Shown piece by piece: positions 42,001 through 45,000 of a stretch of 64,000 nt of DNA (position 1 is the first letter of the stretch; each line of letters starts with the position of its first letter). The stretch comes from Escherichia coli. Its GTDB lineage: Bacteria > Pseudomonadota > Gammaproteobacteria > Enterobacterales > Enterobacteriaceae. The stretch lies in the NCBI RefSeq assembly GCF_041248615.1, contig NZ_CP158426.1; one strand, given 5' to 3'. Position numbers: made by a program.

Positions 42001-45000
42001 AGCTTTAGCATCAGCTAACTCCTTCGTGTATTTTGCATCGAGCGCAGCAACATCACGCTGACGCATCTGCATGTCAGTAATTGCCGCGTTCGCCAGCTTC
42101 AGTTCTCTGGCATTTTTGTCGCGCTGGGCTTTGTAGGTAATGGCGTTATCACGGTAATGATTAACAGCCCATGACAGGCAGACGATGATGCAGATAACCA
42201 GAGCGGAGATAATCGCGGTGACTCTGCTCATTGCTGACCCCACAAACAGATTTCACGCTCAATCTCACGACGAGTCATGAGACCTTTCCATTGCTTACCG
42301 CCAGCATATGTCCAGCGACGTAGCTGATCACATGCGCCTTTGATATCGCCCTGGTTTATTTTGCGAAGAAGCGTCGATGTTCTGAAATTGCCAGCACCCA
42401 CGTTGTAAACGAATGAGTAAAGAGCGCCGCGCATTGTTTCCGGTATATCGACTTTGATGTACGGGTTAATTTGTCTGGCGACCGTGGCAAGGTCTTTATT
42501 CAGGAGGGCTTTGCATTCTGCTTTGGTATACGTTTTACCGAGCATGATGTCTTTTCCTGTATGCCCGTGACATACAGTCCATACACCAACAATATCTTTG
42601 TATGGTATGTAGCTGACACCTTCCAGACCATCGTTACCACTTGGGCCAGTGATTAACACTGATGCTATAGCAATTGCTCCGCCACCAATAGCAGCAGCAA
42701 CGGCTTTTCGTAATGATGGAGGCATTATTCACCTCTCGCAGCCTTGCGCTTATCTTCTTTAATCTTGAAATAAAGGTTTGTCAGGTACGTCAGCAGGCCA
42801 AATACCAGGCTACCCAGCACACCTATTGCCGCCCACTGTGAGGGCGTGACTTTATCGAGCAACTGTAAAAACCAGTACCCGGCACTACCTGCTGAGGTAC
42901 CATAGGCGACACCCGTTGTTAACTTATCCATGGATTTCATAACCCCACCTCGCAGACAAAGCGGGTGTAAATTAAGGGGATACTACGTATCGCAATAAAG
43001 GCAGAAACGTAACAGATTCGGAGTCAGTGAATAACTCAGGTATTGGGTTATCAGCTAATATCGAGACTCAAAAAATGGAAAAACCCGCTCGACGGCGGGT
43101 TTAAGCTGTGTGACGAAGTAACCACTCTTAACAGCATAACCAATTTTTTACGTACGTAAACTACTAAATGATATTTGTGAGAATGCCACCGAGTGTTCAA
43201 AACACCACCACAAATGCATAAGAAAACTTCAACAAATAACCAGTTAATAATTTCCGATGTTATTTTTAGTTTGTTTAAATTAAGCTAAAGAATTATAGAG
43301 CACTTATAAATAAGTGCCATTAATATAAATTAGCTAATAGATTTATTTTTGTTCAGACAAGAGCCATGAATAGGATTAGATAGAAAAGGTTCAGATAAAA
43401 ATAGAGATCTACTTCACAAATTAAATGAGAAACTAAAACTTACATCTTGAAATAATCACATTGATTAGATGAATATTTATCGCGCAGTGACATCATTTTT
43501 TAATAATAGTTCAAAAAAAGGGCGTACAATGAAAAAATTAACAGTGGCAATTTCTGCTGTAGCTGCATCAGTACTGATGGCGATGTCTGCTCAGGCAGCT
43601 GAAATTTATAATAAAGACAGTAACAAGCTGGATCTATACGGGAAAGTTAATGCCAAGCACTACTTCTCCTCTAATGATGCAGATGATGGTGATACTACTT
43701 ATGCCCGTCTTGGCTTCAAAGGTGAAACCCAAATCAACGATCAACTGACTGGTTTCGGTCAGTGGGAATATGAATTCAAAGGCAACCGTGCTGAATCTCA
43801 AGGTTCTTCCAAAGACAAAACCCGTCTTGCATTTGCAGGCCTGAAATTTGGTGATTACGGCTCAATCGATTACGGCCGTAACTACGGTGTAGCATACGAC
43901 ATCGGTGCGTGGACTGACGTTCTGCCAGAATTCGGTGGTGATACCTGGACCCAAACAGATGTGTTCATGACTGGTCGCACTACTGGTGTTGCAACTTATC
44001 GTAACAACGACTTCTTTGGTCTGGTCGATGGCCTGAACTTTGCTGCTCAGTATCAGGGTAAAAATGACCGCACTGACGTAACTGAAGCCAATGGTGATGG
44101 TTTCGGTTTCTCCACTACTTATGAGTATGAAGGATTCGGCGTGGGTGCAACCTATGCTAAATCAGATCGCACTGACGGTCAGGTCGCCTATGGTAAGAGC
44201 AAATTCAATGCCTCCGGCAAAAATGCGGAAGTATGGGCTGCAGGCCTGAAATATGATGCGAACAATATCTATCTGGCTACCACATATTCTGAAACTCAGA
44301 ATATGACCGTTTTTGGTAATAACCATATTGCAAACAAAGCACAAAACTTTGAAGCAGTAGCACAATATCAGTTTGACTTCGGTCTGCGTCCATCTGTTGC
44401 TTACCTTCAGTCAAAAGGTAAAGACCTTGGTGTTCATGGTGACCGAGACTTAGTCAAGTATGTCGATGTCGGTGCTACTTACTACTTTAATAAAAACATG
44501 TCCACTTTTGTTGATTACAAAATCAACTTAATTGACGATAGTAAGTTTACCAAAACAGCTGGTATTGATACCGACGACATCGTCGCTGTAGGTCTGGTTT
44601 ATCAGTTCTAATCTGACTTACGAAAAAGATATGTTGCGGGAGGCTTTGCCTCCGCAACATATAAGTGGAGCCCTCAAGCCACTTCCTTTAGAAGCACTAC
44701 CTTGCTTCTTACTATATAAACCTTCTGTTATATATTACCCTTTATTTTGGGGGCGTTTCCACGCCCCATTTTTAATAACTTTTAGTAAACAATTGCATAT
44801 CAATTAGAATTATTAGCAACGATATCCATATCTAACCGGATATCTAATGCCATTAACATCCCTTCAATTATGCCCTCAGCCTTCTGTAACCTTTTCCCGA
44901 TATAACCATCCGAGCAGCAATGCTTACTTGCCAGTGACATGAATGTCATACCACATACATAATAATCTACTAATAAATCGTGTAAATCGCTGTTGTTCTT

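Follow-up and report, generated by a model that had tools for sequence, protein, structure and literature searches.

An intact lc/nmpC-type porin gene between Q and the lysis genes of a lambda-like Escherichia coli prophage

Does the porin gene found inside an E. coli prophage, and named 'porin OmpC' in RefSeq, encode an intact phage porin, and is its product likely to reach the outer membrane of the lysogen? The gene lies in a stretch of 64,000 nucleotides of contig NZ_CP158426.1, called the window hereafter. We conclude that it is an intact allele of an already known element, the lc/nmpC porin moron found in lambdoid prophages. To this reading as a whole, in which the moron is expressed autonomously in the lysogen and its porin and 3' UTR probably replace part of the host porins, we give a probability of about 90%.

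Integrity and family of the porin

An earlier note on this DNA had described a full-length porin of the OmpC/OmpF family, intact and preceded by a signal peptide, and had named an internal frameshift as the defect to look for. Translation of the + strand confirmed the description: the reading frame comprises 360 codons without internal stop or frameshift, and a pseudogene is ruled out by this uninterrupted frame. The coding features are as follows.

43529..44611, + strand: porin coding sequence, 360 aa plus stop; general porin of the NmpC/Lc/OmpD type
43529..43597, + strand: signal peptide, 23 codons, ending AQA/AE; aligned to the sig_peptide of PA-2 lc (1492-1560, J02580)

The Pfam family Porin_1 (PF00267) covers the protein end to end (profile positions 1-337 of 337, E=1.9e-151), with a score of 504.7 bits against a curated cutoff of 23.7. 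In NCBIfam, the porin passed the cutoff of the OmpC model, which is a broad 'subfamily' only (521 vs 484 bits), and scored below the cutoffs of the PhoE and OmpF equivalogs (NF007544 and NF007446; 503.7 vs 599 and 481.5 vs 583 bits, respectively). The nearest solved structures are those of OmpC, OmpK36 and OmpK37, with E values of about 1e-137 over residues 24-360.

Sequence elements important for export and for the pore are all present. The 23-residue signal peptide has the same sequence as in Lc and in K-12 NmpC, and the protein ends in VYQF, that is, the usual aromatic YQF insertion signal. All seven constriction residues (K16, R42, R82, R132, D113, E117 and D121 in OmpF numbering) are kept, at precursor positions K39, R60, R99, R150, D130, E134 and D138, and so is the L3 motif PEFGGD, which is invariant across the aligned porins. 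The AF2 model of the protein has 16 strands, at a moderate mean pLDDT of 73, with L3 predicted at low confidence.

A longer reading frame of 380 aa would open at an ATG at 43469, the start used in some phage annotations. We disfavour this start, because it adds 20 residues ahead of the signal peptide and because the PA-2 annotation backs 43529. No second porin copy was found within the window.

The prophage locus and its control signals

The position assigned to the gene by the earlier note, between Q and the lysis genes and in opposite orientation to them, is correct, as Q, the P21-type holin gene, the lysozyme gene and Rz are all on the - strand. The neighbouring genes are listed below.

44800..45183, - strand: Q antiterminator of the QuuD type (PF06530, E=7.7e-54); quuD in the UTI89 annotation
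42725..42940, - strand: holin of the P21 S type, EssD (PF04971, E=2e-35); annotated in UTI89
42228..42725, - strand: endolysin, a lysozyme of the RrrD type (PF00959, E=1.3e-45); annotated in UTI89
41770..42231, - strand: Rz spanin (PF03245, E=2.8e-54); rzpD in the UTI89 annotation
41829-42011: Rz1 reading frame embedded in Rz, from the ORF list

The lysis genes S, R and Rz thus occupy 42940-41770, and the order Q, porin on the opposite strand, S, R, Rz and bor is common to DLP12, PA-2, Perceval, ev017 and UTI89. The prophage adjoins icd and is apparently complete and lambda-like, with head, tail and integrase genes; besides the porin it carries bor, TonB-fragment and sitABCD morons, as does Perceval. 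The C-terminal 224 aa of its tail-tip protein J share only 55% identity with lambda J and are closest, at 88%, to J proteins of Stx phages.

Upstream of the porin, the following elements were found.

42941..43528, + strand: AT-rich upstream regulatory region, GC 0.333; promoter predicted no farther than about 200 bp from the ATG
43106..43126, + strand: CRP-binding site 1, as in the PA-2 annotation (21 of 21 positions match misc_binding 1067-1087, J02580)
43401..43421, - strand: CRP-binding site 2, as in the PA-2 annotation (21 of 21 positions match misc_binding 1363-1383, J02580)
43081..43102, - strand: terminator-like hairpin on the late-gene strand, from the terminator scan, between the porin promoter region and the holin gene

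The AT-richness claimed for this region is marked, since GC content falls to 0.28 over 43150-43528, compared to 0.48 for the whole window. The upstream DNA is about 95% identical to that of PA-2 lc, DLP12 nmpC and Perceval; CRP-binding site 2 contains a TCACA half-site, and the hairpin at 43081..43102 is kept in PA-2, DLP12 and Perceval. Consensus scans of the upstream DNA gave no strong sigma-70 match for the porin promoter hexamers. The placement of the promoter therefore rests on homology with PnmpC of K-12, an active sigma-70 promoter mapped by 5' RACE in the homologous -199 to -1 segment, and active enough to drive expression of the IS5 transposase (PMC11677980).

Downstream of the porin, the 188 bp between its stop codon and that of Q hold a 3' UTR made of five hairpins.

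44612..44775, + strand: structured 3' UTR, homologue of ipeX, about 95% identical to K-12 and PA-2
44750..44773, + strand: intrinsic terminator at the end of the porin transcript, GGGGCGTTTCCACGCCCC and then a run of T, from the terminator scan
44629..44662, both strands: 15-bp GC-rich hairpin, the first of the porin 3' UTR, seen in the folds of both strands

The fold of this 3' UTR has a minimum free energy of -54.1 kcal/mol (z=-6.0 against shuffled sequences), its final hairpin is the terminator, and its conservation equals that of the coding sequence. In the P1-like phage P7, the same hairpin architecture (z=-7.35) is found behind a diverged nmpC. The IpeX RNA of K-12 and PA-2 lowers OmpC and OmpF synthesis. 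Castillo-Keller et al. are said to have placed it, in 2006, in the nmpC 3' UTR, and to have identified it in PA-2 as well. IpeX is also cited among the sRNAs that target ompC mRNA, as a repressor. A permissive Rfam scan of 41000-46000 revealed neither IpeX, nor MicF, nor any other relevant family; its sole match, to a Staphylococcus sRNA at the 44629-44662 hairpin, is due to chance (E=0.88).

On the other strand, the same 188-bp interval is expected to contain the Q-dependent late promoter and the first terminator of the late operon. The hairpin at 44629..44662 is followed by CTTTTT on the - strand, and we infer that it may be the late terminator tR'. For the late promoter pR', consensus scans gave only weak candidates, matching at 8 of 12 positions. 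Promoter features could not be transferred from the structurally characterised Q21, because the Q protein of the window is only a distant relative of it (E=4e-8). The porin transcript would be fully antisense to the late leader RNA. It is conceivable, though doubtful, that convergent transcription or RNA pairing couples porin and IpeX to late-gene control, or that the leader titrates IpeX. Under the same speculative heading, the 3' UTR might be an autonomous RNA module for 'porin swap', as it also travels with nmpC in P7.

Expression in the lysogen and competing explanations

Evidence for expression comes from the literature on other strains. In the LF82 lysogen grown in LB, RNA from the Perceval NmpC gene, whose protein is identical to that of the window, is 10 fold above the prophage background. 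Outer-membrane proteomics detected NmpC in 89% of UPEC isolates, so that the question raised by the earlier note, whether the porin is detected in the outer membrane, has a positive answer for UPEC strains. In CFT073, nmpC genes are more expressed at 37 C and low at 23 C, at both the RNA and the protein level. The UPEC and CFT073 data concern nmpC-named genes of other strains, which may be other alleles.

By analogy, the locus probably works as follows. Because the porin gene is placed between Q and the holin gene and faces against the late operon, its transcription in the lysogen would use a promoter of its own and would not require Q. As for K-12 PnmpC, and in agreement with the PA-2 annotation, transcription would depend on CRP and start no more than about 200 bp ahead of the ATG; the AT-rich upstream DNA and the published thermoregulation suggest further silencing or activation inputs. 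The 360-aa precursor would be exported by Sec and lose its 23-residue signal peptide, and the BAM machinery would then insert the 337-aa mature protein, a beta-barrel of 16 strands. It is most likely trimeric, as are OmpC and OmpF, forming a general diffusion channel narrowed by L3; these pore properties, and a benefit of the porin to phage or host, are what we infer from its relatives. The transcript is predicted to end at the intrinsic terminator, after about 165 nt of structured 3' UTR. Acting as IpeX, an activity that this copy presumably shares with its homologues, the 3' UTR would lower OmpC and OmpF. In sum, a phage-encoded porin whose surface loops differ would probably replace part of the host porins, and this replacement would alter the binding of phages, colicins and antibodies as well as the entry of solutes and antibiotics. 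The effects on permeability and on susceptibility to phages and antibiotics suggested in the earlier note are plausible.

Three other explanations were weighed against autonomous expression of the porin moron. The gene could be the ompC of the host chromosome or derive from it by duplication, as suggested by its RefSeq label (ompC, 'porin OmpC') and by its score above the NCBIfam OmpC subfamily cutoff. This is refuted by the prophage context and the identity values, and we give it practically no weight: the gene is flanked by Q and S of a lambda-like prophage, away from the ompC-micF locus, it is found in 42 sequenced phage records, no micF was detected by the Rfam scan of 41000-46000, and the protein is 66% identical to K-12 OmpC, compared to 92% for Lc and about 80% for Salmonella OmpD. 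A second proposal is that the gene, albeit intact, is quiescent in the lysogen, for instance through H-NS acting on AT-rich DNA or through catabolite repression, and adds nothing to the outer membrane in normal growth. The low GC content of the upstream DNA (0.28), the lack of a strong promoter in the consensus scans, and the condition dependence of expression seen in CFT073 between 23 C and 37 C would all fit. The nmpC gene of E. coli B is reportedly called a 'quiescent' porin gene in the title of a 1998 article by Prilipov et al., so that low expression of an intact copy is possible in some conditions. Quiescence as the normal state is nevertheless improbable, in view of the RNA level of the gene for the identical protein in LF82 in LB, of the presence of NmpC in UPEC outer membranes, and of the activity of the homologous K-12 promoter on the IS5 transposase.

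A more serious proposal, which we still hold to be unlikely as a full account, makes the RNA the main selected function: the 3' UTR, as IpeX, would lower OmpC and OmpF and thereby block superinfecting phages that depend on these two porins, the phage porin mostly compensating for the lost permeability. The strong structure of the 3' UTR, its conservation at the level of the coding sequence, the persistence of its architecture behind a diverged nmpC in P7, a non-lambdoid phage, and the mention of IpeX among the sRNAs acting on ompC all point in this direction. However, judging from the sequence, the porin frame is clearly under purifying selection in the barrel and the pore, which argues that the protein itself is selected. 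Nor does the tail-tip protein J point to a receptor from which self-exclusion could be argued. Moreover, a selected RNA complements our main explanation rather than excluding it. We retain the autonomously expressed moron, acting through both porin and 3' UTR, as the preferred reading.

A porin brought in by a prophage, combined with an RNA lowering host porins, can alter the receptors for phages and colicins, the antigens exposed at the surface and the uptake of antibiotics by pathogenic E. coli. Earlier work has already described the gene, where it lies and how it is regulated, as well as its expression in lysogens and its occurrence in the outer membranes of UPEC, so that the window adds no new knowledge. 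Its practical value lies in annotation: for an NmpC/Lc gene of a prophage, the RefSeq name 'porin OmpC' misleads, and the porin ORF is opened 20 codons too early in some phage records.

Distribution and relation to known porins

About one in five sequenced E. coli genomes has the intact porin gene. It was found at 99% identity or more in 1224 complete E. coli records, and the protein occurs on at least 1000 public contigs. At the DNA level, it is 100% identical to the gene for 'porin OmpC' of UTI89 (WP_000737271.1), and major ExPEC lineages have the allele, among them UTI89, 536, IHE3034, APEC O18 and LF82. Copies in E. coli are commonly intact, K-12 being the exception.

Among phages, Perceval (from E. 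coli LF82), ev017 and 2G7b encode a porin 100% identical to that of the window, and the interval between Q and S is 99.4-99.9% identical in DNA in Perceval and in the infant-gut phages ev017, ev207 and 2G7b. Perceval differs elsewhere: its lysis region departs from that of the window downstream of the holin gene, and its nin-region genes are not those of the UTI89 annotation.

The likeness to lc of PA-2 and nmpC of DLP12, pointed out in the earlier note, extends over coding and flanking DNA. In PA-2 (J02580), lc has the same position and orientation beside the lysis genes, and the protein identity is 90.7-92%. The two precursors agree over their first 98 residues and first differ at R99, which is H in Lc; the deposited PA-2 sequence thus has H at pore residue R82 (OmpF numbering), where the window porin has R. 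Nearly all of the 34 aligned positions that differ are in loops L4, L5, L6, L7 and L8, and the window porin is shorter (360 vs 365 aa) by 5 residues missing from L4 and L5. Allelic differences are concentrated in the surface loops L4-L8.

In K-12, nmpC belongs to DLP12 (qsr'), where the module Q (quuD), nmpC, essD/rrrD/rzpD and borD is arranged as in the window, with a homologous promoter region and 3' UTR. NmpC rebuilt without IS5 is 90.7% identical to the window porin, and the first 147 aa are the same. IS5B interrupts the MG1655 gene close to the 3' end, having inserted at a CTAA target near codon 346; this agrees with the disruption that the earlier note gave for the K-12 copy, whereas the window copy is uninterrupted. 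DLP12 is a cryptic prophage, in contrast to the apparently complete prophage that carries the gene studied here.

Among chromosomal porins, the closest relative is Salmonella OmpD, with about 80% identity. K-12 OmpC, OmpF and PhoE are more distant (66%, 62% and 63%, respectively), but these proteins, like OmpD, have in common with the window porin the Porin_1 fold, the PEFGGD motif, the constriction residues and the C-terminal YQF.

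The porin gene and its product

The earlier note had described an intact, full-length prophage porin with a signal peptide, and this held on closer analysis. Translation of 43529-44611 (+) gave a single open frame, 360 codons long before the stop codon, without interruption or internal frameshift. The product matches the Pfam Porin_1 profile from first to last position (E=1.9e-151), its residues 24-360 align with the solved structures of OmpC, OmpK36, OmpK37, PhoE and OmpF (E 1e-137 to 1e-111), and its N-terminus lines up with the 23-residue signal peptide in the annotation of lc, the porin gene of phage PA-2. 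The mature protein has 337 aa (~37.3 kDa, pI 4.8) and ends in YQF. The upstream region was indeed AT-rich: its GC content is 0.28 across 43150-43528 and that of the window 0.48. A 380-aa ORF results if translation begins at an in-frame ATG 20 codons further upstream (43469-43528, +), a start adopted by certain phage and IMG annotations, with 385 aa for Lc-type alleles. That choice probably misplaces the start site, as it would bury the signal peptide.

The OmpF-type constriction residues are all kept (K16, R42, R82, R132, D113, E117 and D121 in OmpF numbering), as is the L3 motif PEFGGD. The AlphaFold model, made from an alignment of 30 sequences, has the 16 strands expected, with a mean pLDDT of 73 and L3 poorly resolved. 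Using its strand boundaries, the allele was compared with its three closest relatives, namely the database proteins P0002 (94%) and P0022 (~91%) and Lc (~91%). Surface loops L4-L8 hold most variable positions (loops 28/115 against barrel and turns 12/222, odds ratio 5.6, p=1e-6), and L1, L2 and L3 are near-invariant. Such a distribution would be expected of a functional pore with an exposed surface under diversifying pressure from phages, colicins or antibodies.

The tests proposed in the earlier note have in effect already been carried out in other strains. In LF82, the NmpC gene of prophage Perceval, whose protein is identical to the one studied here, is listed as a moron (an extra gene carried by a prophage) and transcribed 10-fold over prophage background (PMC9928086). 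In a systematic review (PMC9609314), Wurpel et al. are quoted as detecting NmpC in the outer-membrane proteomes of 89% of UPEC isolates. The two nmpC genes reported in CFT073, c1560 and c2348, are expressed preferentially at 37 C, as RNA and as protein, and the same paper cites work that ties NmpC to the heat resistance of strain AW1.7 (PMC12890032). Published work already covers the prophage porin as far as its expression and proteomics.

Flanking regions and the late operon

The 590 bp upstream of the gene are ~95% identical in PA-2, Perceval and DLP12, the K-12 cryptic prophage carrying nmpC, and both CRP-binding sites annotated in PA-2 are present as exact 21-mers (43106-43126 and 43401-43421). 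The K-12 nmpC promoter is an active sigma-70 promoter within -199 to -1, with a start mapped by 5′ RACE, activation by CRP at two sites, and repression by OmpR, IHF and MprA (PMC11677980). Consensus scanning of the window did not pick out the promoter hexamers. The 5′ UTR block CGCAGTGAC is also kept in P7, a P1-like phage. Two short motifs, CAGTGGC (43542-43548, +; codons 5-7) and GCAGTG (43484-43489, +; 5′ UTR), possibly there by chance, are complementary to the 5′ end of the sRNA RybB. RybB was reported to target nmpC mRNA (PMC3333887).

Downstream, a terminator scan placed the + strand intrinsic terminator at 44750-44773. Between stop codon and terminator, the 3′ UTR is predicted to form five hairpins (MFE -54.1 kcal/mol, z=-6.0), and the 188 bp separating the porin and Q stops are ~95% identical to K-12 and PA-2. 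The nmpC gene of P7 is diverged (81% protein identity) and has no Q gene nearby, yet its 3′ UTR has the same hairpin order and terminator (z=-7.35); the UTR is therefore part of the porin cassette. In K-12 and PA-2 this region is reportedly ipeX, said by Castillo-Keller et al. 2006 to be an RNA lowering OmpC and OmpF expression. The literature examined goes no further than listing IpeX with the sRNAs that act on ompC mRNA.

The porin gene is flanked by Q and the lysis genes on the opposite strand, as are lc and nmpC; the description in the earlier note is accurate to the base.

44800-45183 (-), antiterminator Q, on one side of the porin gene
42940-41770 (-), P21-type holin, lysozyme and Rz/Rz1, on the other side

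Because the porin gene sits between Q and S, on the other strand, the path of Q-modified polymerase to the lysis genes very probably leads through it in antisense. A strong hairpin at 44629-44662 could be the first late terminator, since CTTTTT comes next on the - strand; another terminator-like hairpin lies at 43102-43081 (-). The late promoter was not located, as consensus scans gave weak candidates, and Q is no more than a distant relative of Q21. The late leader may overlap the porin 3′ UTR, and this proposed overlap is the sole part of the locus with any residual novelty.

The rest of the prophage

12743-17143 (+), sitABCD-like Mn/Fe ABC transporter operon (ZnuA, ABC_tran, two ABC-3 genes) and transposase, past the prophage tail end
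20307-24215 (-), tail-tip protein J, 1302 aa (lambda J is annotated with 1132 aa)
40635-41015 (-), ORF with a TonB C-terminal domain only, by domain match
41445-41738 (+), Bor-family lipoprotein gene (bor/iss; PF06291), just past Rz
61193-62335 (+), lambda-type integrase gene
62449-63699 (-), isocitrate dehydrogenase gene

The integrase gene adjoins the isocitrate dehydrogenase gene, so the prophage appears to be integrated at icd. The bor/iss gene is a second moron on the strand of the porin, and its UTI89 counterpart is annotated iss, 'increased serum survival lipoprotein'. Perceval has a homologous 'TonB fragment', listed as a moron and transcribed 8-fold over background in LF82 (PMC9928086). 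The sitABCD-like operon is likewise placed in Perceval. Its fourth gene here (15335-15886) aligns with no more than positions 1-169 of the 258 in the ABC-3 profile and is directly followed by a Mutator-family (IS256-like) transposase (15935-17143), and sitD therefore looks truncated by an IS.

Inside protein J, a segment of ~58 aa that looks like a coiled coil is duplicated in tandem (AKKS.EQS.AIA.VDRKVD...SRQIAQ.RQYVDDK, twice). The C-terminal receptor-binding part of J shows only 55% identity to lambda J and no more than 88% to Stx-phage J proteins, and so does not reveal the receptor of the prophage. If that receptor were OmpC, the porin swap would be a self-exclusion device.

Distribution, disrupted copies and relation to other porins

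UTI89, NU14, IHE3034, ABU 83972, APEC O18 and many other ExPEC chromosomes carry the 1859-bp Q-to-holin interval at 100% identity, and the window shares 99.74% identity with the UTI89 prophage over 17.9 kb. Homologs covering at least 80% of the porin gene were found in 2502 of 5426 complete E. coli genomes. The gene is at least 99% identical in 1224 records, including the species type strain ATCC 11775 and UPEC 536; the exact protein is present on at least 1000 public contigs, its 90% cluster has 2741 member sequences, and 42 phage records encode a relative. The Q-porin-S interval was matched at two places in most ExPEC genomes and up to four in some; the window holds one porin copy.

Disrupted copies are a minority. 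The K-12 gene, described in the earlier note as IS-disrupted, is in two fragments flanking IS5B. In a phage 434 record (OL657227.1) an IS5 is annotated after codon 346, near the K-12 insertion point, and in the E. coli B derivative T7Express (NZ_CP053594.1) an IS1 lies inside a copy 98.9% identical to the window allele; these are independent disruptions of the same gene. The analysis confirms the observation and supports its interpretation: this is a textbook case of a lysogenic-conversion porin, in the intact state that is common for it.

RefSeq names the product 'porin OmpC', an identity as host ompC that we rejected given 66% identity to K-12 OmpC and the prophage setting. P0047, a protein from outside the window named 'porin OmpF' by NCBI, joins a ~120-residue OmpF N-terminal part to a remainder identical to the window allele; the join reflects either genuine ompF-nmpC recombination or a chimeric assembly. 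Among NCBIfam models, the porin passes only the broad OmpC 'subfamily' one and falls below the PhoE and OmpF equivalog cutoffs; identities to K-12 OmpF and PhoE are 62% and 63%. The protein is ~80% identical to Salmonella OmpD, 90.7% to both Lc and the rejoined K-12 NmpC, and 100% to the porins of phages ev017, ev207, 2G7b and several ECOR-derived PhiR phages, as of Perceval. Judged by these identities, the flanking homology and the NCBIfam outcome, the gene is a prophage moron of the NmpC/Lc/OmpD branch.
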